From: Candidatus Marinacidobacterales bacterium
GTDB lineage: Bacteria; Acidobacteriota; Vicinamibacteria; Marinacidobacterales; SMYC01
Length of the DNA: 64,000 nt
Assembly (NCBI GenBank): GCA_965224085.1
Contig: CBDCYI010000005.1
Location: 2,016,001 to 2,080,000, forward strand
Direction of reading: 5' to 3'
The notes below the pieces were generated by a model. The model made no database searches, had not been told where the DNA came from, and saw nothing but the letters and a program-made list of their open reading frames with translations. The translations under genes and the position numbers were made by a program. This document shows, piece after piece, positions 7,109 through 53,777 of this stretch. Within the stretch, counting starts at the first letter, position 1, and the number at the start of each line of letters is the position of its first letter.

Positions 7109-7612
7109 ATGGAAAAAGAATACTTCGAAGACTACACGGTGGGCGAGACGTTCGTCAGCCCGGCCCGCACGGTGACCGAATCGGACACCAACGCTTTCGC
7201 GATGCTGACCGGAGACTGGCATCCTTTGCACACCGACGTGACCTACGCGGAGAGCTCGGTGTTCGGCGAGCGCATCGCGCACGGGATGCTCACGTTGATC
7301 CTCGGCTCCACACTGGTCCTACGCCTCGGACCCCACGTTTACCTGCCGAAGAGCTTCATCGCTTTTTATGGCATCGACCGGGTGCGTTTCACGGCCCCGG
7401 TAAAGATCGGGGACACCATCCACGCCGTGAACCGCGTCAAAGATCTCGCTCCCAAGGACGAGGAGCGAGGAATCCTCCACTACGACGGCACGGTCCAGAA
7501 CCAGCGCGATGAAACGGTTCTCGTCTGGGAGGTCCGCATGCTGGTGGGCTGTCGCCCCGGGCAAACCGGGAGGGAGGAACAGGCCGCTGTCGAAGTGGAT
7601 TCTCGTTCGTGA
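7109..7612 (+). CDS. MaoC-family (hotdog fold) dehydratase
   Basis: C-terminal part of ORF 5786..7612 from ATG 7109: YFEDYTVGE, FAMLTGDWHPLH, IAHGML, RFTAPVKIGDT. Confidence 0.88.
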   Translation: MEKEYFEDYTVGETFVSPARTVTESDTNAFAMLTGDWHPLHTDVTYAESSVFGERIAHGMLTLILGSTLVLRLGPHVYLPKSFIAFYGIDRVRFTAPVKIGDTIHAVNRVKDLAPKDEERGILHYDGTVQNQRDETVLVWEVRMLVGCRPGQTGREEQAAVEVDSRS

Positions 7613-7625
7613 GGAGGGAATTTTT

Positions 7626-9248
7626 ATGAAGAAGAAGAAACTGTGTCTTGCTGTCGCCACCGTTGTTCTCCTGGCTTCCGTCGCTTGTGGTCTGAGCAGC
7701 GGTGCCGGTGACTACCAGGCCCTCGTCGATCTCAACGACGAGTTTCTCGAGTTCCGCCGGCCGGCGATGACCAACGGCCTGCCAGACTACCGCAACGAAA
7801 CGATCGAGAGCCAGCGCGCGGGCCTGGAAAGCTTCGCCCAGCGGCTCCAGGCCATCGATCCGACGTCGTGGCCGGTGTCTCAGCAGGTGGACTACCTGCT
7901 CGTGCGGGCGCAGATCAATCGACTCGATTTCGATCATCGAGCGCGACGACGCTGGTCTCGTGATCCGGGCCTGTACGTCGACACCGTGCAGCGGCTGGCG
8001 TTCCATGAGTTTCCGCTCGAAGGGGAAAAGCTCGCCGAGCTGGAGACGCAGCTGGGCGGCGTTCCCGCTTTCCTGGCGCAGGCCGAAGACAACCTCACCG
8101 ACGGTGCGGGTGAGCTGACGATGCTCGCCCTCCGCAATCTCGTGACGGCCGACGGTGTGGGGCATGGCCATCCTTATCGGGAAGTGCCTCCCGCCGGCAC
8201 CATCGCCTGGTACGAGGATCTGGGTGAACAGCTCGAAAAGCACCACTCGGAGCTCGCCCCGAAAGCGAAAGAGGCGAAGGCGGCAGTCGAAGGATTCCAC
8301 CACTGGCTCAAAGCGAATCAAGGCCGGATGACCGCGCCTTCCGGAGTCGGCCGGGAGAACTACGACTGGTACCTTAAGTACGTAGCCATGATGCCCTTCA
8401 CGTGGGACGACGTGAACCGAATGGGCGATCGCGAGCTCCATCGGTCCTGGACCTTCCTGGAACTCGAAAGAAACAAGAACCGGAATCTGCCTCCGCTCGA
8501 GCCGGCGAAGAGTGCCGAGGACTACGCCCAGCGTATTCGCGAAGCGGATGAGCATATTCGGAAGTTCATCGTGGACATGGGCATCATCACCATCCCCGAC
8601 TACGTTGGCGACTTCGGCAGCAACGTTCCCTGGATCGTGCGCGAGGGCGGCAAGCGCAACTTCTGGGAGGAGGTCCAGTACCGCGATCCGCGGCCGGATC
8701 ACGTTCACGCCGTCATTCCAGGACATCGTTTCGACGGGCTGGTGAGAAGCCACGACGACCGGCCCGTTCGGGGTACGTACCGGGACAGAGGTCGTTCCGA
8801 GGGCTGGGGGTTTTATCTCGAGGAGATGATGCTGCAGGCGGGGCTTCTGGACGAGCGACCACGCACCCGGGAGCTCTATTACATCTTCCAGATTGCGCGT
8901 GCGGTTCGAAACCGCGCGGAAGCCCTGATGCATACCAACGACTTCACCGTCCAGGAAGCGGTGGACTACATGGTGGACAACACGCCCTTCATGGACGAAG
9001 ACGTGGCCCGGGTGGACGCCGAGATCTATCTGAAGACGCCGGGCTCGGGGATCGCCTATCAGATGGGGAAGCTTCAGATCGACGAGCTCATGATGGATCG
9101 CGCGCTTCAGCTGGGTGACAAGTTCAACTTGAAGGAGTTCCACGATGCGTTCATGGCGGCGGGAACGATCCCGATCTCGCTCATCCGTTGGGAAATGACC
9201 GGTTACGACGACGAGGTCAAGGACTTGTTCGAGAAGCCCGAAACATGA
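7626..9248 (+). CDS. DUF885 family protein 3, probable lipoprotein
   Basis: RBS GAGGAGG; MKKKKLCL..LLASVAC signal; VHAVIPGHRFD, SEGWGFYLEE, FNLKEFHD. Confidence 0.8.
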   Translation: MKKKKLCLAVATVVLLASVACGLSSGAGDYQALVDLNDEFLEFRRPAMTNGLPDYRNETIESQRAGLESFAQRLQAIDPTSWPVSQQVDYLLVRAQINRLDFDHRARRRWSRDPGLYVDTVQRLAFHEFPLEGEKLAELETQLGGVPAFLAQAEDNLTDGAGELTMLALRNLVTADGVGHGHPYREVPPAGTIAWYEDLGEQLEKHHSELAPKAKEAKAAVEGFHHWLKANQGRMTAPSGVGRENYDWYLKYVAMMPFTWDDVNRMGDRELHRSWTFLELERNKNRNLPPLEPAKSAEDYAQRIREADEHIRKFIVDMGIITIPDYVGDFGSNVPWIVREGGKRNFWEEVQYRDPRPDHVHAVIPGHRFDGLVRSHDDRPVRGTYRDRGRSEGWGFYLEEMMLQAGLLDERPRTRELYYIFQIARAVRNRAEALMHTNDFTVQEAVDYMVDNTPFMDEDVARVDAEIYLKTPGSGIAYQMGKLQIDELMMDRALQLGDKFNLKEFHDAFMAAGTIPISLIRWEMTGYDDEVKDLFEKPET

Positions 9249-9262
9249 GGCAGGAGGTCAAG

Positions 9263-10963
9263 ATGACGTACACGTTGCAACTCGGTCTCGCTCTCGCCGT
9301 CGCGCTCGCCGCCACGACGTCCGTGAGCCTTGCCCAGAAGTCTGCGGATTCTCGGGACGCGCTCCTCAACCAGGGACCCAAGGCCCTGGCCAGCGGCGAG
9401 TCAGCCATGGTGTCGACCCAGCTCCCCAACGTCACTCGAGCCGCTCTGAGAGTTCTGGCGGACGGAGGAAATGCGGTCGATGCCTTCGTGACCGCTGTTT
9501 TTCTCCAGCACGTCGAGGATACGCATCAAGTCTCGCACTTCGGTGCGATGTCCGGCCTCTACTATGAAGCTTCCACCGGGAACTACTATGCCTTCAACGC
9601 CTTCTCGGAGCGACCCCGGGCCGATCGATGCGGGAGCGGCAAGAAGGTCGGCCGGCTCGCGATTGGAGGCACGGTGCGAGGTCTCGAATCCCTGGCCAAG
9701 CGCTTCGGCACGATACCCTGGCCGAGCTATCTCGAGCCCGCCATCGCCTCGGCGGAGCAAGGGGTCCTCGTCACGAACTTCATGTACGCCCGTAACTACA
9801 ACTTGTGGGAAACGGGAGATCTGATTCAGCAGAACGAAGAGGCGCGAGCGTTCTACATGCCGGCGGGCCACCTCGTTCCGGTGGGCGGGTACTGGAAGAT
9901 GCCGGCCCTCGCGGAGACGCTCAGAAAGGTCGCGGAACACGGAGCAGACCATCTGTACAAAGGTGAGTGGGCGCAGAAATTCGTCGAGCAGGCCAAAAAG
10001 CGTGGCTACTGCGTCACCCTCGACGATCTCGCCGAGTACGAGACGCGCTGGCTCGAGCCGGCGCATTTCACGTATCGGGGCCACGAGATCATCGTCGAGC
10101 CGCCTCCCAACAAGGGCGGCCTGCTGGTCGGCCAGAACCTGAACGTACTGGAACAGTTCGACCTGAAGAGCAAAGGCCATTACGCGGAGTCGGCCGAGAC
10201 GCTCGAGATCATGGTCCGGAGCTTCGGCAAAGTCGAATCGGACATGAAGTGGTCGATCCAGGATCCGGCCGCCTACCACAACCCGTTCGAGCTCTGGTAC
10301 TCGAAGGAGTACGCGAAGATGAGCGCCGAGTACGTCCGGCAGACGATGCCGCAGCCGGGCGTCGATCTGTCGTCGGCGATGAAACGCGTGGCCATGGACA
10401 CCAAGGTGGCGTCGAACGTGATGAACCTGGGCAGCAACCACAACGTGATCGTCGACGCCGAAGGCAACTGGATTACGTCGCTCCACACCGGACACGGCGG
10501 TGCACCCGGTATCTTCATCGACGGCGTCCGCGCGACGGGCAGCGGGGTCAAAGCCGAGACGATGGGCCCGGGACGGCGCATTCTCGCCGAAGTGACGGGC
10601 GTGTTCGTGGCCCGAGACGGAAAGCCCTGGCTCTCGCTGGGGACACCCGGCTTTCCACCGCAACCGGTAACCGAAGTTCTCGTCAATATCCTTGACTTCG
10701 GGATGCATCCAAAGGAGGCCGCCGCCGTACCGCGATTCTGGGCTTTCCTCTACCGTCAGACGGACCGTCGCCTTCTTCGCATCGAATCGCGGATCTCGGA
10801 GAGCGTTCGCAACGGCATGGCAAGAAGTGGCATCCAGCTGGAAGAGCTCGGGGACTACAACTGGCATACCGGCTCGATGCAGATCGTCTGGCGGGATGCG
10901 GCGACCGGAAGGATTCACGGAGTCAGCGATCCGAGGCGACTCGGCCATGCCGAAGGCTTCTGA
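9263..10963 (+). CDS. GGT-fold Ntn hydrolase 1 (divergent, secreted)
   Basis: RBS AGGAGG; signal peptide; GGNAVDA, LEPAI, PPPNKGG, GSNHNVIVDAEGN, SDPRR. Confidence 0.85.
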   Translation: MTYTLQLGLALAVALAATTSVSLAQKSADSRDALLNQGPKALASGESAMVSTQLPNVTRAALRVLADGGNAVDAFVTAVFLQHVEDTHQVSHFGAMSGLYYEASTGNYYAFNAFSERPRADRCGSGKKVGRLAIGGTVRGLESLAKRFGTIPWPSYLEPAIASAEQGVLVTNFMYARNYNLWETGDLIQQNEEARAFYMPAGHLVPVGGYWKMPALAETLRKVAEHGADHLYKGEWAQKFVEQAKKRGYCVTLDDLAEYETRWLEPAHFTYRGHEIIVEPPPNKGGLLVGQNLNVLEQFDLKSKGHYAESAETLEIMVRSFGKVESDMKWSIQDPAAYHNPFELWYSKEYAKMSAEYVRQTMPQPGVDLSSAMKRVAMDTKVASNVMNLGSNHNVIVDAEGNWITSLHTGHGGAPGIFIDGVRATGSGVKAETMGPGRRILAEVTGVFVARDGKPWLSLGTPGFPPQPVTEVLVNILDFGMHPKEAAAVPRFWAFLYRQTDRRLLRIESRISESVRNGMARSGIQLEELGDYNWHTGSMQIVWRDAATGRIHGVSDPRRLGHAEGF

Positions 10964-10964
10964 G

Positions 10965-11135
10965 CAGGCGGCTCCTGAGAATGCATCGGCAGAGGCTGCC
11001 GAAGAGGAGGACGGGAGCAGCGAACGAGGAGTGAGCGACCATTGATGAAAGGCCGAAAGGCCGAAAAGCCGACGACACACCGAGCGCCGAGCGAGGAGCG
11101 AGGCGCCAGGCGCGCGAACGAGCAGTGAGCGCACA
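10965..11135. repeat. Intergenic repeat-derived sequence
   Basis: Two copies of gaacgag(g/c)agtgagcg plus aaaggccg tandem units; same motif family as 149-247. Confidence 0.5.
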
Positions 11136-11159
11136 ATGATACAAAAAAGGAGGAACGTA

Positions 11160-12881
11160 ATGAGAAGATCTAAATGGACCCAAGTCCTGGCAGTGGTGGG
11201 CGTCATCGCCTTTGCCTCCGCCGGGATAGCACAGGACGTACCGACCGACCCCGCCGATCCCCGGCTCAACCAGGGACCGAAACCGGAGGCGATCGGGGAG
11301 AAGGTCATGGTGGCCACCCAGCTGCCGCAGGTCAGCAATGTGGCGATCCAGGTGATGAAGGATGGAGGCAATGCGGTAGATGCCATGGTGGCGGCCGTCT
11401 TCATGCAGCACGTGAACGATTTTCACCAGGTCTCTCACTTCGGCTCGATGTCGGTCATCGGTTATGACGCCGCGACCGACAAGTACTGGGCGCTGAACGC
11501 GGTCTCCGAGCGCCCGCCGGCCGATCGCCACGAGCACGGGGACCCCGAGAAGGTCGCCATCGGTGGCGTCGTGCGCGGTCTCGAAGCGATCGCCGAACGC
11601 TACGGAAGCGGCACCATGGAGTGGTCGAGCTACCTTCAGCCGGCCATCACCTCGGCGGAGGAAGGCGTTGTCGTGACCTCCTTCATGTACGGCATCAACT
11701 ACGGGCTCATGGAGCGAGGTGAGCTCGTCAAGAACCCGGAGGCGCGCCAGGCCTACATGGCGAACGGTCATCTCGTTCCGGTCGGAGAGCGCTGGAAGCG
11801 CCCGAAGTTCGCCGAGACGCTTCGCAAGGTCGCCTCCGAAGGGGCCGACTACCTCTACACCGGAGCCTGGGCCAAGAAGTTCGTCGAGGCCGCCAACAAG
11901 AAAGACTATGCGGTCAGCATGCAGGACCTGGCGGAGTACGAGCCGAAGTGGGACGAGCCGACACGATTCACTTATCGGGGCCTCGAGTTCTACGGCTCCC
12001 CACCGCCGGACACCGGTGGCCTGATCGTCGGAAGCAACCTCAACATTCTGGAGAACTTCGATCTGAAGAGCATGGGCCACTACAGTGAGTCGCCCGAGGC
12101 CCTCGAGATCATGATCCGCGCCTTCGGCCGGGTCAACGACGAGACCCGTTGGGTCATCAAGGATCCGCTCAATTTCCGCATCCCCTCGGAGCTCTGGCTC
12201 TCCAAAGAGTACGGAAAGATGGGAGCCAAGTTCGTGGAGAACACGATGCTGCTTCCCAAAGTGGACCTCGCTCCCGCCACCGAGACCACCGCCGCATTGG
12301 TACAGCCGGCGACGCCGCTGTTTCCCGCCGGCGCCGACGGTGCGGACAGCGCCGATCTGGGAAGCAACCACAACGTCATCGTGGACTCGCAAGGGAACTG
12401 GGTGTCGATGCTCCACACCGGACACGGTGGTGCCCCGGGCATCTTCATCGATGGGGTGAGGGCGACGGGAAGTGGCGCCCGCGCCTACACCGCGGGTCCC
12501 GGCCGTCGACTGGTCCTGCCGATCACCGGGATCATCGTCGCCAAGGACGGAAAGCCGTGGCTGGCGATGGGTACCCCCGGCTCGCCTCCGCAGCCGGTGA
12601 CCGAGGTTCTGGTGAACATCATCGACTACGGCATGCATCCGAAAGATGCCGCAGACGCGCCGCGCTTCTGGGCCTTCCGAAACGACGAACGTGGGGTTCG
12701 CATCGAGTCCCGCATCTCCGACAGCGTGCGGAAGGGCATGAAGAGGAGGGGGATCAAGGTGACCGATCTCGGTGATTACAACTGGCACACCGGCTCCATG
12801 CAGATCATCTGGATGGGTGAGGACGGGAAGCTTCACGGAGCCACCGATCCCCGACGACTCGGAACGGTCATAGGTTACTGA
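11160..12881 (+). CDS. GGT-fold Ntn hydrolase 2 (divergent, secreted)
   Basis: RBS AGGAGG; signal peptide; GGNAVDA, GSNHNVIVDSQGN, GTPGSPPQP, TDPRR. Confidence 0.85.
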   Translation: MRRSKWTQVLAVVGVIAFASAGIAQDVPTDPADPRLNQGPKPEAIGEKVMVATQLPQVSNVAIQVMKDGGNAVDAMVAAVFMQHVNDFHQVSHFGSMSVIGYDAATDKYWALNAVSERPPADRHEHGDPEKVAIGGVVRGLEAIAERYGSGTMEWSSYLQPAITSAEEGVVVTSFMYGINYGLMERGELVKNPEARQAYMANGHLVPVGERWKRPKFAETLRKVASEGADYLYTGAWAKKFVEAANKKDYAVSMQDLAEYEPKWDEPTRFTYRGLEFYGSPPPDTGGLIVGSNLNILENFDLKSMGHYSESPEALEIMIRAFGRVNDETRWVIKDPLNFRIPSELWLSKEYGKMGAKFVENTMLLPKVDLAPATETTAALVQPATPLFPAGADGADSADLGSNHNVIVDSQGNWVSMLHTGHGGAPGIFIDGVRATGSGARAYTAGPGRRLVLPITGIIVAKDGKPWLAMGTPGSPPQPVTEVLVNIIDYGMHPKDAADAPRFWAFRNDERGVRIESRISDSVRKGMKRRGIKVTDLGDYNWHTGSMQIIWMGEDGKLHGATDPRRLGTVIGY

Positions 12882-12895
12882 CACTACATTGGATG

Positions 12896-12924
12896 GCGGG
12901 GTCTCTGACTCGAGGGGCCCCGCC
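12896..12924 (+). other. Intergenic stem-loop
   Basis: ggcggggtctct-N6-aggggccccgcc, no U-tract. Confidence 0.4.
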
Positions 12925-12940
12925 TCGAAAAGGAGGGGGC

Positions 12941-14662
12941 ATGCACTGCGCAAAAGCCATGCGGATGATACTGGTTGGTCTGCTCACCTGGCTCTCTGTG
13001 TCGACCGCCTGGAGCCAACCGACCCTGCCCGACGATGCACGGGACGCCATCTACAACCAGGGCCCGAAGCAGGAAGCGGTCGGCGACAAGGTGATGGTGT
13101 CGACGCAGCTTCCCATCGTGACCGAGACCGCCCTTCAGGTTCTTCGCGACGGGGGTAATGCGATCGATGCCTTCGTCACCGCCGTCTTTCTTCAAAACGT
13201 CGTCGACTATCACCAGGTGAGTCTCTTCGGTGCCATGGGCGGGCTCTATTACGAGGCGGCCACCGGGAAGTACCACGTCTTCGAGTCCTACTCGGAGAGA
13301 CCGCTCGCGGGTCGCTGTGGCGAAGGCGATCCTTCCAAGGTGGCCATCGGCGGCAAAGTGGCGGGCCTGAACGCTCTCGCCGAACGATTCGGCACCCGCA
13401 AGTGGGCGGAGTATCTCGATCCGGCCATCGCCGCGGCGGAAGAAGGTGTTCTAGTCACCTCCTTCATGTACGGCAGCAACTACAACAACTGGGAAACGGG
13501 CGACCTCATCCAGCAGAACGAGGAGGCCAGAGATTTCTACATGCCGGAGGGTCATCTCGTTCCGGTGGGCCACCGCTGGAAGATGCCGAAAGTGGCGGAG
13601 ACGTTGCGCCATATCGCCTCGGAGGGGGCCGACTATCTCTACACCGGCGCCTGGGGGAAGAAGTTCGTCGAGAAGTCACGCGAGAAAGGTTATTGCGTGA
13701 GCCTCGAAGACATGGCGGACTTCCAGGTGCGCTGGTCCGATCCCGTCCGCTCCACGTACCGCGGCTACGAGATCGTGAGCGAGTCGCCACCGAAAAAGGG
13801 TGGCGTTCAGATCGCCTACAACCTCAACATTCTCGAGAACTTCGATCTGAAGAGCCTCGGTCACTACGCGACGTCGGCGGAAAGCCTCGAGATCCTGACG
13901 AGGGCGCTCGGCAGGGTGGAGAACGATATGCGGTACGGGATCGCCGATCCGAAGGCGTTTCAGATCCCAACCGAGGTGTGGCTGTCGAAAGACTACGCCC
14001 GGTTCGGCGCCGATTTCGTACGGCAGACGATGGTCGTTCCCAACGTGGATTTGACGCCGGCCAAAGCAACGGCAGCGCTCCATCGTCTGGCCCCGACACG
14101 GATCGCGCGGTCCGCCGACGCGCCGCCGCTGGTCGACGAGAGCAATCACAACGTCATCGTCGATGCCGAAGGGAACTGGATCACGTCGCTTCACACCGGA
14201 CATGGCGGCGCGCCGGGGATCTTCATCGACGGCTTGCGGGCGACCGGGAGCGGTTTTCCCGGCCAGACGGTGGGCCCAGGCCGGCGGGTGAGCCCCAACA
14301 GCACCGGTACGATCGTGGCCAAGGACGGAAAGCCGTGGCTCGCTCTCGGCTCGCCGGGCGTACCGCCCCAGCCGGTGACCCAGATACTGGTGAACATCAT
14401 CGACTTCGGCATGGATCCCGGCGACGCCGCGGACGCACCGCGCTTTTTCGCCTTCCGTACCAACGAGCGGGTTCTGGCCATCGAGTCCCGCATCTCCGAC
14501 GACGTGCGAAAGGGTCTGAAGGCCCGCGGCATCAAGATCGAAGACCTTGGTCCGTACAACTGGCACACCGGCTCCATGCAAATCGTCTGGAGGGATCCGG
14601 AGACGGGAAAGCTTCACGGCGTGAGCGATCCCCGCCGACTCGGCCGCGCCGCCGGCTTCTGA
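12941..14662 (+). CDS. GGT-fold Ntn hydrolase 3 (divergent, secreted)
   Basis: RBS AGGAGG; signal peptide; GGNAIDA, ESNHNVIVDAEGN, GSPGVPPQP, SDPRR. Confidence 0.85.
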   Translation: MHCAKAMRMILVGLLTWLSVSTAWSQPTLPDDARDAIYNQGPKQEAVGDKVMVSTQLPIVTETALQVLRDGGNAIDAFVTAVFLQNVVDYHQVSLFGAMGGLYYEAATGKYHVFESYSERPLAGRCGEGDPSKVAIGGKVAGLNALAERFGTRKWAEYLDPAIAAAEEGVLVTSFMYGSNYNNWETGDLIQQNEEARDFYMPEGHLVPVGHRWKMPKVAETLRHIASEGADYLYTGAWGKKFVEKSREKGYCVSLEDMADFQVRWSDPVRSTYRGYEIVSESPPKKGGVQIAYNLNILENFDLKSLGHYATSAESLEILTRALGRVENDMRYGIADPKAFQIPTEVWLSKDYARFGADFVRQTMVVPNVDLTPAKATAALHRLAPTRIARSADAPPLVDESNHNVIVDAEGNWITSLHTGHGGAPGIFIDGLRATGSGFPGQTVGPGRRVSPNSTGTIVAKDGKPWLALGSPGVPPQPVTQILVNIIDFGMDPGDAADAPRFFAFRTNERVLAIESRISDDVRKGLKARGIKIEDLGPYNWHTGSMQIVWRDPETGKLHGVSDPRRLGRAAGF

Positions 14663-14694: not shown

Positions 14695-14718
14695 AGACTT
14701 CATGCAATGGTGGACGTG

Positions 14719-16332
14719 ATGAAAAGAAGCACTCTCGCCGCAATTCTTGGTTCCGTTGTACTGGCTCCTGCACCGGCCTATTCGCAAGGCGCCCACGCGG
14801 ACGTCGTTCGCTTGTACGATGAGCTCCAGGAGCTCCGAGAGCCAGAGTTCGTCGACGGTGTGCCGGATCTTTCATCGGAAGCGATAGAGAAGCAGAAGCG
14901 CGGCCTGGAAGCACTCCGTCGCGAGCTGAACATGATCGAGCCGAGAGCCTGGCCCGTTCCGCAACAGGTGGACTACCTGCTGGTGCGCGCGAAGATGGAC
15001 GAACTCGACTTTCATCATCGCGTCATAAAGCCGTGGGCGCGCGACCCGGGCTTCTATCTCGACTCGATAGCACAGATACCTTTTGCCGAGGTCCCGCTCG
15101 ACTCCGGGGAAGCCTCCGAGCTCGAACGTCGACTGCGGTCGGTGCCCGCCGTCCTGGAGCAGGCGAAGTCGTACTTGACGGAAGGCGCCCGCGATCTTTT
15201 GGTGGTCGCCCTCAGAAACCTGAAAGAGTCACGCCGCGTCGGCGGGGGACAGCCGATGCGGAACGAGCCACCCCCGGGTGTGGTTGGCTGGTACCAGGAC
15301 CTCGTCGAGCGCCTTGCCGACCAACATTCCGACCTGGTGCCGGTGGCGAAGGAAGCTCTCGCTGCCGTCGAGGGCTACCGGGACTGGCTCGAGGAGAACC
15401 GGGAGCAGATGACCGCTCCAGGTGGCATCGGACTCGACGACTACGACTGGTTCTTGAAGCACGCCCGCCTGATGCCCTTTACCGCCGGCGACGTGCGGGC
15501 CTTGGGAGAGCGGGAGGAGCAGCGCGGGTGGGCTTTTCTGAAGATCGAGCAGAACCAGAATCGAGACCTTCCCGAGCTCGAGCTGGCGAAAACAAGAGAA
15601 GAGTACATTGGACGCGTGCGGGAGGCGGACGTGCACATCCGGGCGTTCATCCGCACCGAGGGCATCTTGACGATCCCCGATTTCATCGGAGAGCTTGACC
15701 GGCACGTCCCGTGGGTGGAGCGTCCGACCGACTATCTTCGCTTCTGGGAGCAGCTCCAGTATCGCGATCCCCGTACCGACCACGTGCACGCCACGATCCC
15801 CGGCCACCAGTTCGACGGACGGATCCAGGCCCGGGACGAGCGGCCCATCCGGGCTGGGTACCGGGACGGCGCCCGCGGCGAAGGCTGGGGTTTCTATCTG
15901 GAAGAGATGATGCTTCAGGCCGGTCTTCTCGACGAGCGGCCCCGAGCTCGCGAGCTCTACTACATCGCCCAGCTCGGCCGGGCGGTCCGCATCGCCTCGG
16001 AGCTCATGATGCACGGCCGGGAGGGGTCGATCGAAGAGGCGGTCCGCTACATGCTCGAGCACACGCCCTGGATGGACGAGCACGTCGCCTGGTTCGACTG
16101 CGAGGTGTACCTGCGGCGGCCGACCTATGGCATTGGCTACACGATCGGAGCCGTCCAGATTCAGCAGCTCTTGTCCGACCGGGCCCGTCAGCTCGGGGAG
16201 GCCTTCGACCTTCGCGAGTTCCACGACGCGATTCTGGGCGCGGGGCGGATTCCCATCTCGATGACCCGATGGGAGATGACCGGCCTGGGCGATGAAGGGA
16301 GCAGGTTTTTTGACGACTCAGGCGGGCAGTAG
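14719..16332 (+). CDS. DUF885 family protein 4, secreted
   Basis: C-terminal part of ORF 13402..16332; MKRSTLAAILG signal; VHATIPGHQFD, GEGWGFYLEE, FDLREFHD. Confidence 0.8.
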   Translation: MKRSTLAAILGSVVLAPAPAYSQGAHADVVRLYDELQELREPEFVDGVPDLSSEAIEKQKRGLEALRRELNMIEPRAWPVPQQVDYLLVRAKMDELDFHHRVIKPWARDPGFYLDSIAQIPFAEVPLDSGEASELERRLRSVPAVLEQAKSYLTEGARDLLVVALRNLKESRRVGGGQPMRNEPPPGVVGWYQDLVERLADQHSDLVPVAKEALAAVEGYRDWLEENREQMTAPGGIGLDDYDWFLKHARLMPFTAGDVRALGEREEQRGWAFLKIEQNQNRDLPELELAKTREEYIGRVREADVHIRAFIRTEGILTIPDFIGELDRHVPWVERPTDYLRFWEQLQYRDPRTDHVHATIPGHQFDGRIQARDERPIRAGYRDGARGEGWGFYLEEMMLQAGLLDERPRARELYYIAQLGRAVRIASELMMHGREGSIEEAVRYMLEHTPWMDEHVAWFDCEVYLRRPTYGIGYTIGAVQIQQLLSDRARQLGEAFDLREFHDAILGAGRIPISMTRWEMTGLGDEGSRFFDDSGGQ

Positions 16333-16606: not shown

Positions 16607-16739
16607 TCCGTACCAAATGAGAGTTGTTCATTCGTGCCTTTGTTTTACTCGCCAGTGAACCGGGGATCGCTTCCTCGGTTTTGTCTATTTCTCGCCGGAC
16701 GCTGATCGAGTGGGCTCGGCGGCAAGGAGGATCCAAGCT

Positions 16740-19613
16740 ATGTCCTTAAATTCGTTGCTCCATCGACCTTCATGGCGTTTGACGCTGACGGCGGTGCTCG
16801 TTGTGGTGCTGGCCTCGGGGCTCGCCTTCGCCCAGGATCGGACGGGCGACATCTACGGCAAAGTCACCGACGACCAGGGACTCGGAATCCCTGGGGCGAC
16901 GGTCACCGTCACCAGCCCGGCGCACATCAAGACCGAGATAATCGTCACCGGCAACGAGGGAAACTACCGGGCCGTCCGCCTGAGCCCGGGCTCCTACACG
17001 GTGAAAGTAGAGCTTTCCGGTTTCCGGACGGTGACGAACCAAGAAGTGGTGCTGCTGGCGGGTCAGTCGATCGCGGTAAACGCGACGCTCTCACCCGCCG
17101 CGGTAGAGGAGACGATCACCGTCACCGGCGAGTCGCCCTTGGTGGACGTCAAGAACGTCCAGGTGATGCGGACGCTGGAAACGGAGCTTCTCGACAACAT
17201 CCCGAACGGTCGCAAGTACGCGGACCTTCTCACCACGGTGGCCGGGGTGCTCGACGCCGAGTACGGCTTCACGCCCGCCCAGACGGTGCACGGGAGCTCG
17301 CCCCGGGACAACCTGTACAACATCGACGGGGCGGCCTTGAACGACACCACGGTGGGTTATATCGCCACCGAGATCCCGATCGATATGATCGAAGAAGTCC
17401 AGATCACCACCAGCGGTATCTCGGCGGAGCACGGTCTGTCCACCGGGGGTGTGTTCAACTTCGTCACCAAATCGGGCGGTAACGACTTCAGCGGCACCGC
17501 CAACTTCTTTTACGAGGGCGAGGGCCTGACCGCGGACAACCTGACCCCCGAGCTTGCGGAGCAGATCCCCCAGGGAAGCGTCATCGAAAAGAACCAGGAG
17601 ATCGGCGGCACCGTCGGTGGTCCGATCAAGCGCGATAGTGTCTGGTTCTTTTTCAATTTGCGCCGGACCGAAGTGGATGTCGCAGAGCCTTTCCTTCCGC
17701 CGGGCTCGCCCCGTGCCACGAATCAGACCCACAGCTTCACCAAGGCGACCTGGCAGGCGCATGCGAACACCCGGATCGAAGGCTCCTTGACCACGCGGGA
17801 TCAGGACCAGAATCCCGGCAACGTCCGAAGCTTCTCGAACGCCGACGCCCCCGAGACCTGGGAGATCCTCAAACGCTCCCAGCGCATCGTTCACGTGGCC
17901 GCAACGCACGTCTTCTCGCAGAACACGCTCATGGACGCGCGATTCAACCGGGTGTTCAAGAACTTCGACCGGGAGTATCCCAACAATCCCGATCTCGTTG
18001 TGGGGTACAGAGACATCGGCACCAACAAGCAGTTCGGTGGTCAGTTCGACCGCAGAGGACTCCGAAGAACCTTGGCCCGCGACATCGGGCAGTTCCACGT
18101 CTCGCTCTCGAACTACAAGGAGAACTGGGGAGGCTCGCACGAGTTCAAGGGCGGTTTCTACGCGGAGCGCTCACCGTTCGATAACGAGAACTTCTGGCCG
18201 AACGGTGAGGACATCGAGCAGCGCCTGCGCTTCGGCGAGGCCCACCGCGTGCGCTTGTGCGTGTGTCCGCAGGACGGCGTCAAGTCGAGCATCGACCGCT
18301 ATGCCGCCTACTTCCAGGATCAGTGGACGATCACCGATCGGGTGACACTGAACGCCGGCATCCGCTGGGAGGGCACCGAGGGATGGATTCCGGAGCAGAG
18401 CGCCGGCGGCGGCCGATTCTTCGCCTTGGAGACCCAGGAAGAGCTACGGGACCAGATCAACTTGAGCACCTTCGCTCCGCGGCTGGGCGTCGCCATTGCG
18501 CTCGACGAGGCAGGGCGGAGTACGCTGAAGGCCAGCTACGGTCGTTACTACGCCATGCTCCTGAATCAGACGGCGCTCAGGCTCGTCCAGGTGGGAGGCT
18601 TCGAGGAATACCGGTGGAACGACCTCAACGGCGATCTCGTCTTCCAGGAAGGTGAGGCGGGAGCCCTGACCCGCGGGCGCAGCGCCGGTTTGCGCGAGTC
18701 CGATCCCGACTTGAAGCAGCAGTATGTCGACAACTTCAACATCACCTTCGAGCAGCAGTTCGGCCGCGACTTCGTTTTCTCCGTGGCCGGGATCATCAAG
18801 CGGGAGAACGACATCATCGAGACCGCTGACATCGGCCGGCCCTTCTCCGCCTACAACGAGGTCACCGTGACGAACCCCGTCGACGGACAGCCCATCAACA
18901 TCTTCGTTCTCGATCCTTCCTTTCTGGGCTCCCCCACGGTTACCTTCATCACCAACCCCAAAGATCCGACACCGCTGTTCCGGGACTTCGACGCTCTCGA
19001 GCTCGTGTTCCAGAAGCGCTTCCGCGAGGGCTGGCAGATGCTCGCCTCCTACACCTGGAGCAGCTCCTACGGCAACATTGGCAACAGCTACGGCTCGAGC
19101 TCCGGTGGCCGGTCCGTCTACGACAACCCCAACACCACCCTCATCAACATCGAGGGTCCTCTCGATATGGACGTGCCCCACGCCTTCAAGCTCCAAGGCA
19201 CCTATGTGTTCCCGCACGACGTCTGGGTCAGCGCTTACTATCAGGGCCTTTCCGGCTTCCCCCTCAAGCTCCCCCAGGATTTCCCCAGCGACCCGGCACT
19301 CGGGGCCCGCACGGTTCGCTTCTTCCGTGAGGATGTACCGGAAATGGTGGTCGAGAGCTTCATCGACATCGCCGGCACGCAGAGGGGCTCCGAGCGACAT
19401 GACTTCAAGCATCTCGTGAACTTGCGGGCGGAAAAGAAATTCAACCTGGGAGGCGGCGCGCGCATCGGCATCATCGCCGATGTGTTCAACCTGTTCAACA
19501 GCAGCCGGGTGACCACGGTTCAGTCGTTGCGCGTCGACCTGCCACAGTTCCACGTTCCGGCGCGGATCGAGTTCGCCCGCCGGCTTCGAATCGGTCTCCG
19601 CTTCGAGTTCTAA
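16740..19613 (+). CDS. TonB-dependent receptor 1 (Oar-like, N-terminal carboxypeptidase-regulatory-like domain)
   Basis: RBS AAGGAGG; signal peptide; PGATVTV, ETITVTGESPLVDV, VFNFVTKSGGN, YFQDQW, APRLG, DVFNLFN, C-terminal F. Confidence 0.9.
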   Translation: MSLNSLLHRPSWRLTLTAVLVVVLASGLAFAQDRTGDIYGKVTDDQGLGIPGATVTVTSPAHIKTEIIVTGNEGNYRAVRLSPGSYTVKVELSGFRTVTNQEVVLLAGQSIAVNATLSPAAVEETITVTGESPLVDVKNVQVMRTLETELLDNIPNGRKYADLLTTVAGVLDAEYGFTPAQTVHGSSPRDNLYNIDGAALNDTTVGYIATEIPIDMIEEVQITTSGISAEHGLSTGGVFNFVTKSGGNDFSGTANFFYEGEGLTADNLTPELAEQIPQGSVIEKNQEIGGTVGGPIKRDSVWFFFNLRRTEVDVAEPFLPPGSPRATNQTHSFTKATWQAHANTRIEGSLTTRDQDQNPGNVRSFSNADAPETWEILKRSQRIVHVAATHVFSQNTLMDARFNRVFKNFDREYPNNPDLVVGYRDIGTNKQFGGQFDRRGLRRTLARDIGQFHVSLSNYKENWGGSHEFKGGFYAERSPFDNENFWPNGEDIEQRLRFGEAHRVRLCVCPQDGVKSSIDRYAAYFQDQWTITDRVTLNAGIRWEGTEGWIPEQSAGGGRFFALETQEELRDQINLSTFAPRLGVAIALDEAGRSTLKASYGRYYAMLLNQTALRLVQVGGFEEYRWNDLNGDLVFQEGEAGALTRGRSAGLRESDPDLKQQYVDNFNITFEQQFGRDFVFSVAGIIKRENDIIETADIGRPFSAYNEVTVTNPVDGQPINIFVLDPSFLGSPTVTFITNPKDPTPLFRDFDALELVFQKRFREGWQMLASYTWSSSYGNIGNSYGSSSGGRSVYDNPNTTLINIEGPLDMDVPHAFKLQGTYVFPHDVWVSAYYQGLSGFPLKLPQDFPSDPALGARTVRFFREDVPEMVVESFIDIAGTQRGSERHDFKHLVNLRAEKKFNLGGGARIGIIADVFNLFNSSRVTTVQSLRVDLPQFHVPARIEFARRLRIGLRFEF

Positions 19614-47062: not shown

Positions 47063-47245
47063 CGGAATAAGAACTGTTATCACCTGAGCGCGGCTGAGGA
47101 ACAGCGGAGACCTCACGATAGACTGTCCACGCGTCATCGACCGGCTGAGACAGCTTTATTTCGAATGGTTGAGCACCTGGTTTCAATTTCCGAGCACTCC
47201 GATCGTTAACTGGGTCCGATTCAAATCCTGAAAGGAGGGAGGAAA

Positions 47246-49859
47246 ATGCTGCATAAGTTATTCGACCTCTTACGCAACTTAGCGCCCCCAGCTATGTTGA
47301 CCCTGGCTGTATTGCTAGTCGGAGCGGGCACCGCCTTCTCGCAAGAGGTGACGGGAACCCTCTATGGGAAGGTCGCTGACGAGTCCGGCCTGGCCGTCCC
47401 TGGAGTGACGGTCACAATAAGCAGTCCACAGTTTATCAAGGAGGCGGAGGTTCGTCTCACTACCGGCACTGGAACCTATCGCGTGCCGAACCTCCCTACT
47501 GGCTTCTACACCGTGAAGGTTGAGCTTCCAGGCTTCCAGACCATCACTCGCGAGGGTATCGAGCTGCAGGCGGGTTCATCAATAAAAATCGATTTTAACC
47601 TCAAGTTGAGCCCTCTCGAGGAGAGCATCACCGTCACCGGAGAATCGCCGCTCGTTGACGTCAGAGGCGCGGAGACGATGCGGACAGTGGAAACCGCAAT
47701 CATCGAGAATATTCCTACCAATCGCAGGATTGAGGAGGTCCTTACTAGCGCTCCGGGCATCATCGATAGCCAGTATGGTTTCTCGCCCGCCCAGACAGTT
47801 CACGGTAGCTCGGTTCGGGACAACCTCTATAACCTCGATGGGGCCGGCACCAACGATACCACGGTCGGATACAATGCCATGCCTATCCCATATGACATCG
47901 TGGAGGAGGTTCAGATCACCACCGGGGGCATTTCTGCCGAGTTTGGCCAGGCCAGTGGCGCGGTTTTCAATATCATCACCAAGTCGGGAGGGAACGATCT
48001 GCGCGGCGAGGCCAACGTCTTCTTGGTGAACGATAGCTTGCAAGCGGACAACCTCACCGACGAACTTCGTGCCCAGGGGCTCGAAAAAGGAACGACCGAA
48101 AAAAAGAACTTGGAGTACGGATTCGTTTTGGGCGGGCCACTGAAGCGAGATAGGGTCTGGTTCTTTGGTAACGTCCGCTGGTTCGATGTAGAACGGACCC
48201 AGGCTGGAAGCGCTGTTCAGCCAGGCTCTAGTCAATTTCAGAGAGGAATTCGGCCTCAACGCAGTAGGCACTCGTGACCTCGACACCGGGCTCGACTCTG
48301 GAGGTTGGACCGGCACACGGGGCCCCACCTTCCAGCGGGACAAGAGGACGATCAAGGCCAACATCTCGCACTACGTCGATCAGTGGGCTGGCACACACAG
48401 CATCAAGGCAGGGTATATTAACGAATTCTCTCCCTTTGCGCGGGTCCGAGACATTTTCGGGGACACGCACCTCCGGACTCGAAGCGGGGTGCCGCACCGA
48501 GTTCGACTCTACAATACACCGAGGGAGCCCAGAACCAATGTGTCGTTTAACGCCCTGTTCCTCCAGGACGAGTGGACCGTAGGAGACCGCGTCACACTAA
48601 GCCTGGGCGTGCGCTCCGAGTGGACCGAAGGCTGGCAGCCCGACCAGCAAAGTGGAGGGGGCATGTGGTTCCCCGTCGAGAACTTCCCAGAGGAACGCGA
48701 CCAGATCAGCTGGTTCAACACGGCGCCACGGCTCGGAGCGGTATGGGATGTCAGAGGCGATCAAAGGACTTCTGTCAAGGCGAGTTATGGCCGCTATTAC
48801 ATGTCCCTTCTCAACCAGCACGTTCTCACTGGCAACCGCGGCCAGGCCGGCTACCAGGAGTTCGACTGGATGGACCTCAACGGTGACCTCAAGTTCCAGG
48901 ACGGCGAGCAGGGCACCCTGCGCAACGATAATCGGTCAAGTCAGAATACCTTCGACCCCGACTTGATACAGCCGTACGTAGATACGATTCACGTGGGCGT
49001 GGACCAGCAGCTGGGAAATGACTTCGTCGTGTCCGTGGCCGGGATCTTCAAGAGAGAGCGGGACATTATCGAAACGATCGATCTATCCAAGCCTTTCGAC
49101 AAATATAACCCGTTCACTGTAACCAACCCAATTGACGGCCAACCCTTGACCATCTTTGCATTGGACGAGAGCCTTCAAGGTGTGCAGCGAATCCGATATC
49201 TCACCAACCCCACCGATCCGGTGGTTCTCAAGCGGGACTACAAAGGAATCGAGATCGTAGCTCGCAAGCGGATGAGCGACGGCTGGCAGTTTACTGGCTC
49301 GCTCAATCTCGGCCGGTCCGAGGGCAACATCGGCAACAGTTTCGGCGCCAGCTGGGGAGGGCACCGAGTCTACGACGACCCGAACGCCTTTCTTAATATT
49401 GACGGTCCGCTCGACTTGGACTCTCCCGTCCAGATCAAGCTCTTCGGGAGCTACCAGGCTCCTTACGAAATCATGGCGAGCGTGTTCTACCAGGGGCTTT
49501 CCGGCTTTCCGATCAAGCCCAACTCGGGTTTCCCGTCGGACATACTGGGTGCGTACACGGTTCGCTTCAGCCGCAACGATCACCCAGAGATTGTCGCGGA
49601 GAGCTTCATCGACGTCGCCGGTCAGCCGAGAGGAACGAACCGCCAAGACTTCCGGCACCTGCTCTCGTTCCGCGCGGAAAAACAGATTGAAATGGGTGAT
49701 AGGGCGAGACTGAGTCTGGTGGCCGACGTCTTCAACATTTTAAACACCAGCACCGTCCTCGCGGTGGATTCGCTGCGGTTCGGCAGTCCCAATTTCCTCG
49801 GGCCGGCCATCATTGAGCTTCCTCGTACCTTGCGGGTGGGACTGCGGTTTGCCTTCTAA
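47246..49859 (+). pseudogene. TonB-dependent receptor 3, internal deletion with frameshift near 48203
   Basis: Homology to TBDR2 stops at ..VERTQ (48202) and resumes in another frame at 48204 (LEALFSQ..GPTFQRD..HRVRLYNTP); about 79 codons present in TBDR2 are missing. Confidence 0.85.
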
Positions 49860-50328: not shown

Positions 50329-52068
50329 GTGCGTTACTTGAGATTTTTGACTTTGGCACTCATGGCGTTCGCCGTCGCCGGCAGCATCGCTCCGGAGACC
50401 AGGGCGCAAAAGAGTGCCCTCGCCAACCTACCTACGGATCCGAGGGATCCGCTGCTCAACCAGGGACCAAAGAAGGTGGCGGTGGGAGAGAGCGTGATGG
50501 TGAGCACGCAGCTACCCATTGTGACGGAAGCTGCGCTCCAGGTGCTGCGCGAGGGAGGCAACGCCATCGACGCCTTCATCACGGCGGTGTTCCTGCAGAA
50601 TGTGGTCGACTACCACCAGGGCTCTCTCTTCGGCGCGATGGGAGGGCTTTACTATGAGGCAGCCACGGGGAAGTATCACGTCTTTGAGTCCTATTCCGAG
50701 CGGCCGCTCGCCGGACGCTGCGGCGAAGGCGACCCATCACAGGTGGCGATCGGAGGCAAAGTTCTCGGCCTCGAGGCGCTGGCCAAGCGCTTCGGCACCC
50801 GGGAGTGGCCGAGCTATGTCGAACCGGCGATTGCCGCGGCAGAGGAAGGCGTCCTGGTCACCTCGTTCATGTTCGCCAGCAATTACAACTCCTGGGAAAA
50901 CCGCGACTTGATCCAGAAAAACAAAGAGGCCAGCGAGTTCTACATGCCGGACGGGCATCTGGTCCCGGTGGGTCATCGCTGGAAGATGCCAAAGTTAGCG
51001 GAGACTCTGCGGAAGATTGCCTCCGAGGGAGCGGACTACCTTTACACCGGCGCCTGGGGACAGAAGTTCGTGCGTGAGACCAGGAAGAAGGGTTACTGCG
51101 TGAGCATGGAGGACATGGCGGGTTTCGAGGTGCGGTGGGGAGAGCCGGTGCGCACGACGTACCGGGGGTATGAGATTTTCAGCGAGCCGCCTCCGAAGAA
51201 GGGCGGTATCCAGATCGGCTACAACTTGAACATCCTGGAAAACTTCGATCTCAAGAGCCTGGGGCATTATAGCGAGTCAGCGGATACGCTGGAGATCATG
51301 ACACGCGCCTTCGGCCGGGTCGAGGACGATCTTCGCTACGCGATCGCCGACCCCCTGAGCTTTCAGATCCCGTCCCAGATCTGGCTTTCGAAGGACTACG
51401 CCAAGATCGGAGCCGACTTTGTGCGCAGCACCATGGTGCTGCCGAACGTGGACCTGACGCCGCCCGAGAAGTCGACAACGGCAAGCAACGAGGCCGGAGG
51501 CACTCGTCTCGCCCGCGTGCTGGAGGGGCTGCCGACAGTCGACGAGAGTAACCACAATGTGATCGTGGACGCGGAAGGAAACTGGATCTCCTCGTTGCAT
51601 ACCGGGCACGGAGGAGCTCCGGGAACTTTCATCGATGGTATTCGAGCCAGGGGTAGCGGATTCCCCGGGCAGACAGTGGGGCCGGGGCGTCGCGTCAGTC
51701 CCAACAGCACCGGTACGATCGTGGCCAAAGACGGCAAACCTTGGCTGTCGCTGGGCTCTCCGGGTGTGCCGCCCCAGCCGGTGACGGAGGTGCTGGTCAA
51801 TATCATCGATTTCGGCATGCATCCCACAGAAGCGGCCGATGAAACCCGCTTCTTCGCGTTCCGCACCGCCGAGCGTGTCCTCGCGATCGAATCGAGGATT
51901 TCCGAGGAGGTACGCAAAGGGATGGCGGCGCGCGGCATCCAGCTCGAACACCTGGGTCCCTACAACTGGCATACCGGGTCGATGCAAATCATCTGGCGTG
52001 ACCCAACCACCGGGAAGCTACACGGGGTTACCGATCCGCGACGGCTCGGCCACGCAGCAGGGTTCTAA
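50329..52068 (+). CDS. GGT-fold Ntn hydrolase 4 (divergent, secreted)
   Basis: RBS AAGGAGG plus GTG; ESNHNVIVDAEGN, GSPGVPPQP, TDPRR; most similar to GGT3. Confidence 0.85.
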   Translation: MRYLRFLTLALMAFAVAGSIAPETRAQKSALANLPTDPRDPLLNQGPKKVAVGESVMVSTQLPIVTEAALQVLREGGNAIDAFITAVFLQNVVDYHQGSLFGAMGGLYYEAATGKYHVFESYSERPLAGRCGEGDPSQVAIGGKVLGLEALAKRFGTREWPSYVEPAIAAAEEGVLVTSFMFASNYNSWENRDLIQKNKEASEFYMPDGHLVPVGHRWKMPKLAETLRKIASEGADYLYTGAWGQKFVRETRKKGYCVSMEDMAGFEVRWGEPVRTTYRGYEIFSEPPPKKGGIQIGYNLNILENFDLKSLGHYSESADTLEIMTRAFGRVEDDLRYAIADPLSFQIPSQIWLSKDYAKIGADFVRSTMVLPNVDLTPPEKSTTASNEAGGTRLARVLEGLPTVDESNHNVIVDAEGNWISSLHTGHGGAPGTFIDGIRARGSGFPGQTVGPGRRVSPNSTGTIVAKDGKPWLSLGSPGVPPQPVTEVLVNIIDFGMHPTEAADETRFFAFRTAERVLAIESRISEEVRKGMAARGIQLEHLGPYNWHTGSMQIIWRDPTTGKLHGVTDPRRLGHAAGF

Positions 52069-52151: not shown

Positions 52152-53762
52152 ATGGCCAGGAAGTGGATGACGGTAGTTTTTTTCCAGATCGGACTGCTGC
52201 TGGGAACCCATGCGGCGCCATCGGGCTCCCTCGCCTCCCAATTCCCGGCGGTGGAGATTCAAGAGCTCGTGCTCGACAACGGATTTCGGGTGTTAGTCGT
52301 GGAGGATCACCGGGTTCCCCGCGTGGCCGCGAGTCTCTGGTATCGCGTGGGGTCGATCGCGGAGGCCCAAGGCGAGCACGGCGCTGCGCACTTCCTCGAG
52401 CACATGGTGTTCCAGGGGACGACTTCGGTGGGGACCAAGGACTTTGCAGCGGAAGTGCCGATCCTGCGCGAGATTTACGAGACCGAGCAGAGGCTACTGA
52501 AAATCTGGAATGGGGAGAGGAATCGCCTGCGAGAGCGTGACGTCTTCTACGACGAGCTCGAGTGGCCGACCACGAGCAGAATGGACGAGGTGCGCCAGCG
52601 GCTTTACGAGCTTGAGGACGAGGATTCCGAGTACCGTGATTTCTGGGCAGAGTACAACTGGTATCTGCGCCACGGCGCCCTCATGCGGCATACCGATCCC
52701 GTCCCGGCGACCACCTTCAAGGAGCACATAGAGATTGATATTGACCTTCCCAAGGAAAACCTCGAGCTGTTCTTTCGGCTCGAGGCGGACCGGATGGTCA
52801 ACGCGGTCTTTCGAGGCTGGGAGGCTCAGCGGTTTACGGTGCTAGAGCAAAGGCTGAACCGACAGGGCCGTGCAGCGACTCGGTTCGATTACGAGGCGCT
52901 GGACGGAGTCACGTTCCTGGCTCACCCCGTGGCCCACCCCGCCGGTGGGAATTTACGGGATTTCGCGTACTTCAATCGCGCCGACATGTCCCGCATGTAC
53001 GACGCTTACTTCGTGCCCAACAACGCGAGAGTCGTTCTCGTGGGAGACGTCACGCTTACTGAGGTACGACCCCTGGCGGAGCGTTTCTTCGGTCGCCTGA
53101 AGAAAGGTGCCGAGCCCCCCGCCCGTATGGACTACGAGGCGGAGCCGGTTCCTGGAGGCGCCATTCGACTCGACTGGATGGAGCCTCTGGACCCTCGAGT
53201 CTTCGTACGTTACCGAATGCCGGGTGTGGGTCATCCGGACCGCCCGGTATTCGACACGATCGCCGCGCTCCTGACAGGGCCGCATGGCATGATCGGCGCC
53301 GATTTCACCGCTGGGGGCGGCGGTCGCACCTCGACCCAACCCGTTGACTTCGGGGTTTCTGCGCCGCGCGTTGGGGTGCCGTACGTGCTCAGCATCGTCG
53401 GCTCGGCGCGAAGCGATGACGATCTCCCCGACACCGACAGAGCAATCCTTTGAGCGGTCGAGAACTTGCGACAAGGACGAATCGATGCGAGCGCACTCGA
53501 ACGAGCGCGCAAATACATGCGTCTGGAATGGGACCAACTGCGTGCTGATCGTGGTGGCCTGGCGAGTGCGCTGGGAAGTTTCGACGTGATGGATAGCTGG
53601 AAGATTCTCCAATCGCACATGGAGGTGCGCGAAACTTCCTCGGCGGAGGACGTCCAGCGGATCGCACAGCGATATCTCGTTCCCTTCAACCGGGTGATCG
53701 CCACATCGCGTCAGAAACCGCTCGCCCCGGAAAGCCGTTCTCCTCACGGCCCGGTTCTCTAA
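52152..53762 (+). pseudogene. M16-fold HxxEH subunit (alpha 4) with in-frame TGA at 53451-53453
   Basis: GAAHFLEHMVFQGT; ORFs 52152..53453 and 53466..53762 are in the same frame and read AIL*AVENLRQG versus paralog AILEVVQELRQG. Confidence 0.8.
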
Positions 53763-53777
53763 CTGAGGCTCCGCGAC

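Follow-up and report, generated by a model that had tools for sequence, protein, structure and literature searches.

A candidate serine-nucleophile branch of the gamma-glutamyltranspeptidase fold, expanded beside TonB-dependent receptor and peptidase genes in a marine acidobacterium

Genes of the gamma-glutamyltranspeptidase (GGT) fold were analysed in a stretch of 64,000 nucleotides of DNA (the window) from Candidatus Marinacidobacterales bacterium (GenBank assembly GCA_965224085.1, contig CBDCYI010000005.1, positions 2,016,001 to 2,080,000 of the forward strand), in which five gene copies, numbered 1 to 5, encode proteins with Ser at the position of the catalytic Thr of GGTs. That this Ser acts as the N-terminal nucleophile is well supported by sequence comparison. 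On balance, the five open reading frames (ORFs), which belong to a set of eight in the genome, probably encode periplasmic, self-cleaving amidohydrolases of the Ser N-terminal nucleophile (Ntn) type and the GGT fold that would serve in peptide scavenging. Loss of gamma-glutamyl activity is plausible from the residues compared, and a substrate other than a gamma-glutamyl compound is the weakest point of this reading. The GGT fold and family with a Thr nucleophile are already known; what appears to be new here is a natural Ser-type branch.

The window was searched for ORFs, and all five Ser-type copies were intact at the coordinates given for them in an earlier, sequence-based prediction (the original prediction). 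All were matched by PF01019 (G_glu_transpept) with E values of 1e-69 to 1e-78 and scores of 235.8–266 bits (gathering score 27 bits), each match consisting of two stretches with the active-site loop region left out. Copies 2–5 were 59–64% identical to copy 1. Copy 3 was analysed from position 12962 (566 aa) and served as the search query and the modelled protein. The motifs that had been reported were recovered exactly in five of five copies: SNHNVIVD and LHTGHGG were present, NNxMDDF was absent, with F(I/V)DG(V/L/I)R(A/S)(T/R)GS standing where canonical LLNNQMDDFS would be (FVDGVRSTGS in copy 5), and GSPGG was substituted by G(S/T)PG(F/S/V/L)P(P/S)QP. The N-termini of all five resembled Sec signal peptides when judged by eye, and a conserved P-T-D-P-x-D-P-L-L-N-Q-G-P-K stretch followed the signal-like segment. 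Scores against the GGT equivalog TIGR00066 were 210.3–240.3 bits, below the cut-off of 357.85, and those against NF007187 were 149–174 bits, with a cut-off of 990; NCBIfam held these two GGT equivalogs only and no model specific to the Ser-type family.

Active-site residues were compared in a MAFFT alignment of the five copies with the annotated GGT of E. coli K-12 (28–29% identity), residues being scored as not kept where the aligned column held no equivalent, with loop alignment uncertain beside deletions. The roles of T391, R114, N411, Q430, D433, S462/S463 and G483/G484 were taken as given in PMC8062742 and PMC4568574. Ser of all five copies was placed in the T391 column and Asn in the T392 column. 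In an independent HMMER alignment, 'eSnHnvivD' was aligned with 'eAtHftvtD' of the B. licheniformis T399A precursor mimic 4y23, Ser falling on residue 399. H393, T409, R459, G483 and the C-terminal DPR motif were retained in the window copies, and none of the six gamma-glutamyl-binding residues (R114, N411, Q430, D433, S462 and S463) was: R114 was replaced by Y, F or V, the N411 column was a deletion, the NNQMDDF stretch that holds Q430 and D433 was exchanged for DGVRATG, and S462/S463 were not retained. L410–F414, I418–A420 and the 12-residue lid loop were deleted. The Gly483-Gly484 oxyanion-hole pair was broken, G483 remaining and G484 being replaced by V, F, S or L (W or S in the remaining Ser-type copies of the genome). 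According to PMC8062742, the class IV cephalosporin (glutaryl-7-ACA) acylases have a pocket that resembles that of GGT except for an Asn at D433; in the window copies this stretch was replaced or deleted, with F, R or a gap at that position.

The closest database homologues (n = 120, 53–99% identity, annotated as GGT by their sources) carried Ser at the nucleophile column in 119 cases, the sole exception (P0050) being a 446-aa product that diverges upstream of the site. The residues after Ser were mostly N-H, with the variants SNA/SCA, SDH, SCH and SQH, and LH(T/S) and HGG were retained throughout. Because the Ser column holds in 119 of these 120 homologues, its conservation is far beyond chance. 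The Ser codons of the window copies, AGC or AGT, are one base away from the Thr codons ACC and ACT. For the Ser-type paralogues dN/dS was 0.10–0.34, consistent with purifying selection on all eight genome copies, and dS was above 0.97 for all pairs except one recent pair, the remaining paralogues appearing to be old.

The structure of copy 3 was predicted with AlphaFold2 from a 25-sequence alignment (pLDDT 86.5, pTM 0.88). Residues 370–390 were disordered in the model (pLDDT <50), and Ser394 was the first residue of strand 394–400; such a Ser, predicted to open a strand right after a disordered linker, is the arrangement expected of an Ntn or GGT precursor. The linker preceding Ser was variable across copies. 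Foldseek placed the GGT precursors 2e0w (E. coli T391A) and 4y23 first (probability 1.00, TM 0.81–0.84 by target length), followed by the B. halodurans 'cephalosporin acylase', LmbA2991 and a T. acidophilum GGT-related protein, with TM 0.74–0.84 by target length overall. From the model, the five copies are predicted to have a GGT-type Ntn-hydrolase fold.

The wider superfamily was surveyed by an exhaustive HMMER search with copy 3 against 1.84 billion cluster representatives, which gave 12,633 matches at E<=1e-3 and 842 at E<=1e-30. From the best 150 of the 12,633 matches, the 124 representatives of at least 500 aa were aligned jointly with E. coli GGT. In these nearest full-length representatives the nucleophile column held Thr in 82, Ser in 41 and Arg in 1, Ser types making up a third. 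The assignment of Ser to the nucleophile position made in the original prediction therefore stands on two independent alignments, on the invariance of Ser in the subfamily, on a column restricted to Ser or Thr in 123 of 124 representatives, on the retention of T409 and G483, and on the start of the modelled strand.

A FastTree phylogeny was built from 150 rows comprising the nearest representatives, the window copies, the paralogues from the same genome and E. coli GGT; the rows stand closest to the query and are no fair sample of PF01019, support values from FastTree run optimistic, and the tree was rooted arbitrarily. The SNH(N) family formed a clade of 17 rows (support 100), nested in a 30-row clade (support 100) with SCH/SCE types and three Thr members (TNH, TNH and TSH). 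SCH/SNH, SHH/SYH/SYQ and SDA/SAG/SDG types, together with one Thr-type row (P0133), formed a separate clade of 41 rows (support 98). The 30-row group and the 41-row clade lay in a Ser-rich half of 72 rows with weak basal support (74), set apart from the other major clade of 75 rows (support 100), which was all Thr and included E. coli GGT. At least 10 changes between Ser and Thr were needed on the tree. In the Ser-rich rows the G484 position was variable, and G483 was sometimes Ser. The SNH(N) family is thus a distinct subfamily as originally proposed, but its Ser is not confined to that subfamily: the Ser nucleophile appears to mark a much larger, Ser-rich and uncharacterised branch of PF01019.

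Eight Ser-type copies, and not five, were found in the genome (6.87 Mb, 12 contigs), the three outside the window lying at C5:~697 kb, C4:~1.18 Mb and C11:~0.15 Mb. The copy at C5:~697 kb was 97–98% identical to copy 4 (dS 0.022). About a dozen Thr-type PF01019 paralogues were also present. One of these, 51% identical to E. coli GGT, keeps R114, T391, T392, H393, T409, D433, S462, S463 and G483-G484, and has Glu at 411 and 430 as in B. subtilis; since the genome already has this canonical GGT, gamma-glutamyl work would be covered. Gly-Gly was kept in 10 of 10 aligned Thr-type paralogues, G484 being lost in the Ser type only. PF01019 is strongly expanded genome-wide, with 35 Pfam matches that correspond to roughly 20 genes, several of them fragments, and one match (C11:1213156-1213482) contained three in-frame TGA codons.

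Members of the Ser-type family were carried by 8 of 31 related genomes (own genome included), in 1–10 copies each, and none was found in two of the four other genomes of the same genus (93–94% complete). When the phylum was sampled evenly, a match at E<=1e-120 was obtained in 4 of 201 genomes (own genome included), this count being a lower bound as only six candidates were scored per genome. Across species-representative genomes 49 loci were recovered, their sources being Acidobacteriota, Aminicenantes, Gemmatimonadota and gammaproteobacterial Wenzhouxiangella metagenome-assembled genomes (MAGs). The patchy presence and the copy numbers indicate an accessory family that is patchily distributed and prone to expansion.

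MEROPS places the GGT family (T03) among the threonine peptidases, and the family members HpxW and CapD both use Thr. Sequence searches of the PDB with copy 3, a subfamily profile and three members of the other Ser clades returned only known Thr-type entries of the GGT family, namely the GGTs of E. coli, H. pylori, Bacillus, P. nitroreducens and human, CapD, HpxW, LmbA, 2nlz and 2i3o. The fold search of structures returned the same Thr-type set and no solved Ser-type member, and the ESM Atlas contained generic 'gamma-glutamyltranspeptidase domain-containing protein' clusters only. No natural Ser-nucleophile GGT homologue was found in a literature search that left most subscription journals outside, so that absence is not proven, and no characterised Ser-type member was found in the PDB or in the literature searched. 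Nothing relevant to an expansion of GGT in Acidobacteria or in the microbiomes of sponges turned up in titles and abstracts. PMC4568574 and PMC8062742 describe both the Gly-Gly pair and the catalytic Thr of GGT as universal or 'invariably conserved'.

The window copies share with E. coli GGT (2e0w, 2dbu; MEROPS T03) the Pfam family, the fold (TM 0.84 by target length), an exported precursor of similar length, H393, T409, G483, R459 and the DPR motif, and a hydroxyl residue at the processing site; they differ from it in having Ser/Asn for T391/T392, in lacking the pocket, the lid loop and G484, and in scoring below the TIGR00066 and NF007187 cut-offs. The GGTs of Bacillus licheniformis and B. 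subtilis (4y23, 3a75) also have no lid loop, and Ser falls on their residue 399, but they have a Thr nucleophile, an intact gamma-glutamyl pocket and the Gly-Gly pair. In the class IV cephalosporin acylase/GGT-like protein of B. halodurans (2nlz; TM 0.82) and in extremophile GGTs the pocket departs from the E. coli residues, as it does in the window copies, whereas their nucleophile is Thr (TTY-type clade), Gly-Gly is kept, identity is 24% and on the tree they fall within the all-Thr clade. LmbA and Ant6 (C-C bond-cleaving GGT homologues; 6j3a) are GGT-fold Ntn enzymes with a function other than on glutathione, but they have a Thr nucleophile, belong to actinobacterial biosynthetic clusters and are only weakly similar in sequence (E 5e-8 to 2e-15). 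PMC5519988 describes Ant6 as able to exchange its Ntn residue between Thr and Ser/Cys, whereas the Thr of LmbA2991 is described there as irreplaceable. HpxW oxamate amidohydrolase (5hft) and CapD (3g9k) are, by their entry titles, family members with substrates other than glutathione, and are distant from the window copies (E 1e-10 to 2e-22, large subunit only).

The favoured reading would entail the following mechanism. A Sec-exported precursor would cleave itself at the X-Ser bond (G/E/D-Ser391..410) to give a large subunit of ~390–410 aa, signal peptide included, and a small subunit of 172–180 aa beginning with Ser. The hydroxyl of this Ser would attack the amide carbonyl, assisted by the free amino group of the same residue, by the Thr kept at the T409 position and by backbone NH groups around the retained G483, and an acyl-enzyme would form and then be resolved by water. 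The acyl-binding pocket appears to be rebuilt relative to that of E. coli GGT, and the preferred substrate is consequently probably no standard gamma-glutamyl compound; class IV acylases and extremophile GGTs show that the fold accepts other acyl groups (PMC8062742). From gene context, the enzymes may act in the periplasm on peptide-like material brought in by neighbouring TonB-dependent receptors (TBDRs), alongside M16, DUF885, M24 and S9 peptidases and perhaps on amide bonds closed to those, Ser-type enzymes having possibly been recruited many times into peptide-scavenging gene sets. A broader proposal, to which we give somewhat less than an even chance, is that the GGT superfamily contains a large, uncharacterised natural Ser branch without the Gly-Gly pair and the gamma-glutamyl pocket, with repeated swaps between Ser and Thr, of which the window family would be an expanded clade whose products act, in marine Acidobacteriota, as periplasmic amidases on imported peptide-like nitrogen compounds closed to ordinary peptidases.

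Several results weigh against the favoured reading. G484, lost here, is a Gly that the review PMC8062742 calls invariably conserved. The same source reports impaired processing and activity for T391S (E. coli), T380S (H. pylori, activity reduced by 92%) and T399S (B. licheniformis, reduced by 89%); with canonical GGTs impaired in this way by a Thr-to-Ser change, the competence of Ser in the scaffold cannot be taken for granted. The signal peptides were called by eye and with no predictor. Contigs from four metatranscriptome libraries spanned 20–30 of 30 bins over the genes at >=95% identity, but DNA carry-over is possible and there was no silent control region; this coverage is no proof of transcription and was not counted as evidence. 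Gene context was conserved among close relatives only, and in a scan of 16 distant loci (94 of 121 candidate ORFs) no neighbour was universal; with no universal partner across phyla, context gives just a general flavour of peptide/amide catabolism. As to the pocket, all six residues are lost, but the argument drawn from this in the original prediction is weaker than was claimed, since extremophile GGTs are likewise described as lacking R114 and S462/S463 (PMC8062742), so that divergence of the pocket alone is compatible with gamma-glutamyl substrates.

It is unlikely, though with a real chance, that the proteins are still gamma-glutamyl hydrolases acting on glutathione, gamma-glutamyl peptides or poly-gamma-glutamate, with the group bound by other residues and Ser as a tolerated alternative nucleophile. 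Membership of PF01019, the GGT annotation given by the sources and the replacements in extremophile GGTs would fit this, a peptide-scavenging context would suit gamma-glutamyl peptides, and an invariant Arg-Arg (GPGRR) could act as a carboxylate clamp; the loss of every E. coli pocket residue, of the lid loop and of G484, the sub-cut-off TIGR00066 scores of all five copies and the redundancy of eight further genes for one reaction beside a canonical GGT and other Thr-type paralogues argue in the other direction. The changes at Thr and at the Gly-Gly pair, and the poor Thr-to-Ser mutants (both PMC8062742), would also suit pseudoenzymes, that is, dead and unprocessed GGT-fold proteins at work in the periplasm, for instance as binding or chaperone-like partners of the receptors and peptidases encoded nearby. 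This is considered improbable, because a column kept as Ser or Thr in 123 of 124 representatives and as Ser in 119 of 120 close homologues is unexpected for a dead enzyme; T409, G483 and the VIVD strand are kept as well, and dN/dS is low. Least probable, at a slight chance only, is a role as biosynthetic or tailoring enzymes of a natural-product pathway instead of catabolic amidases, as for the C-C-cleaving LmbA/Ant6. GGT homologues with non-amide chemistry do exist (PMC5519988) and LmbA2991 (6j3a) matched the modelled fold with TM 0.75–0.76, but no NRPS, PKS or tailoring genes were seen in the window or at the three other loci of the genome, where the neighbours are receptors and peptidases; the proteins also carry predicted export signals, and the LmbA-type enzymes use Thr and are weakly similar.

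If the broader proposal is correct, the chemistry or the specificity of these enzymes would be new, and loci for TonB-receptor-linked peptide utilisation would gain a new component. In three model GGTs a change of Thr to Ser cripples the enzyme, and an abundant, conserved branch that carries Ser by nature would therefore show how the GGT scaffold was adapted to that residue. Unexplored amidases or acylases could also be drawn from such a branch, engineered GGTs being already in use as cephalosporin acylases, and the blanket label 'gamma-glutamyltranspeptidase/glutathione hydrolase' on these proteins should be corrected. The eight-copy expansion tied to TBDRs and peptidase sets points to a specific organic-nitrogen substrate used by these bacteria.

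The features of the window are collected in table 1.

Table 1. Ser-type GGT-fold genes, putative nucleophile codons and adjoining genes, in window positions.
Feature	Position	Strand	Remarks
Copy 1, putative Ser-type GGT-fold hydrolase	9263..10963	+	566 aa from M at 9263 (alternative upstream start possible, around 9248); ORF, PF01019 E 1.7e-71, motifs
Copy 1, Ser391 codon AGC	10433-10435	+	
Copy 2	11136..12881	+	581 aa; ORF, PF01019, motifs
Copy 2, Ser410 codon AGC	12363-12365	+	
Copy 3	12893..14662	+	589 aa from ATG at 12893; ORF, PF01019, motifs
Copy 3, Ser394 codon AGC	14141-14143	+	
Copy 4	50329..52068	+	579 aa; ORF, PF01019, motifs
Copy 4, Ser407 codon AGT	51547-51549	+	
Copy 5	58590..60320	-	576 aa; ORF, PF01019, motifs
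Copy 5, Ser397 codon AGC	59130-59132	-	
DUF885 protein	7509..9248	+	directly upstream of copy 1, co-directional; PF05960 E 1.1e-44
DUF885 protein	14710..16332 (start approximate)	+	directly downstream of copy 3, co-directional; PF05960 E 5.7e-42
TBDR with CarboxypepD_reg N-domain	16710..19613	+	downstream of DUF885-GGTx3-DUF885 block
TBDR, frameshifted as assembled	47210..49859	+	upstream of copy 4; overlapping frames 47210-48277 and 48192-49859
M16 (insulinase-like) peptidase gene pair	52152..55277	+	downstream of copy 4
M16 peptidase gene pair	55329..58494	-	downstream of copy 5
TBDR	60550..63483	-	upstream of copy 5; completes second TBDR-GGT-M16-M16 unit

In a profile scan the window was an island of uptake and peptidase genes, containing four DUF885 proteins, TBDRs with CarboxypepD_reg, eight M16 peptidases, two M24 peptidases, two FG-GAP/ASPIC proteins and one BNR/sortilin protein. 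Copies 1–3, a plus-strand tandem (9263-14662), lie in a tight co-directional block of the order DUF885-GGT-GGT-GGT-DUF885-TBDR, and copies 4 and 5 each belong to one TBDR-GGT-M16-M16 unit, these two units (47210-55277 on the plus and 55329-63483 on the minus strand) being inverted and meeting at their downstream M16 ends. A third such unit was located elsewhere on the contig, at C5:693-701 kb. Its M16 genes are just 85–87% identical to those beside copy 4, and as the GGT genes are 97–98% identical, gene conversion or uneven divergence is suggested. The two overlapping frames of the TBDR upstream of copy 4 indicate a single frameshift within their ~85-bp overlap, in a pseudogene or through assembly error. 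The first M16 gene after copy 4 (52152-53750, plus strand) has an in-frame TGA at 53451-53453, past which the frame, judged by eye, goes on with sequence like the C-terminal region of the M16 paralogue at 56869-58494. As assembled, the unit thus has two of its four genes disrupted, copy 4 itself being intact. The remaining two copies of the genome, at C4:~1.18 Mb and C11:~0.15 Mb, have an S9 peptidase (PD40 with a prolyl-oligopeptidase-type domain) as same-strand neighbour, and one of them also faces a TBDR.

A TBDR-DUF885-GGTx2-3 block was present at 13 of the 49 loci, with an M24 gene next in 11; these 13 loci are all close relatives (>=80% identity) and so not independent. In the 16 distant loci the adjoining genes were an S9 peptidase (3), an amidohydrolase (3), an FMN-dependent dehydrogenase (3) and a second PF01019 gene (2). 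At three distant loci on Vicinamibacteria/Acidobacteriota MAG contigs (L067, L069 and L078) an FMN-dependent dehydrogenase (PF01070) follows the Ser-type gene on the opposite strand, and at two of these a Thr-type PF01019 paralogue comes next as well. DDE transposase genes were found beside three Ser-type loci of the genome (window 19875-21704, minus strand; L081 1789-2790; L082 11355-12236), in keeping with these units having been rearranged and duplicated recently. DUF885 is regarded as a metallopeptidase-like family, with a motif of the HExxPGH type. The H-x3-PGH motifs of the four window paralogues (2149-9248 and 14710-16332, plus strand) are HDGIPGHH, HSDWPGHY, HAVIPGHR and HATIPGHQ, the first His having no Glu after it, and these copies may be unusual if the HExxPGH type is the family norm. 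A further receptor-linked set at 35093-46756 (plus strand) comprises a TBDR, four tandem M16 genes (38555-44967) and an FG-GAP/ASPIC (UnbV) protein, with no GGT-fold gene in the set.

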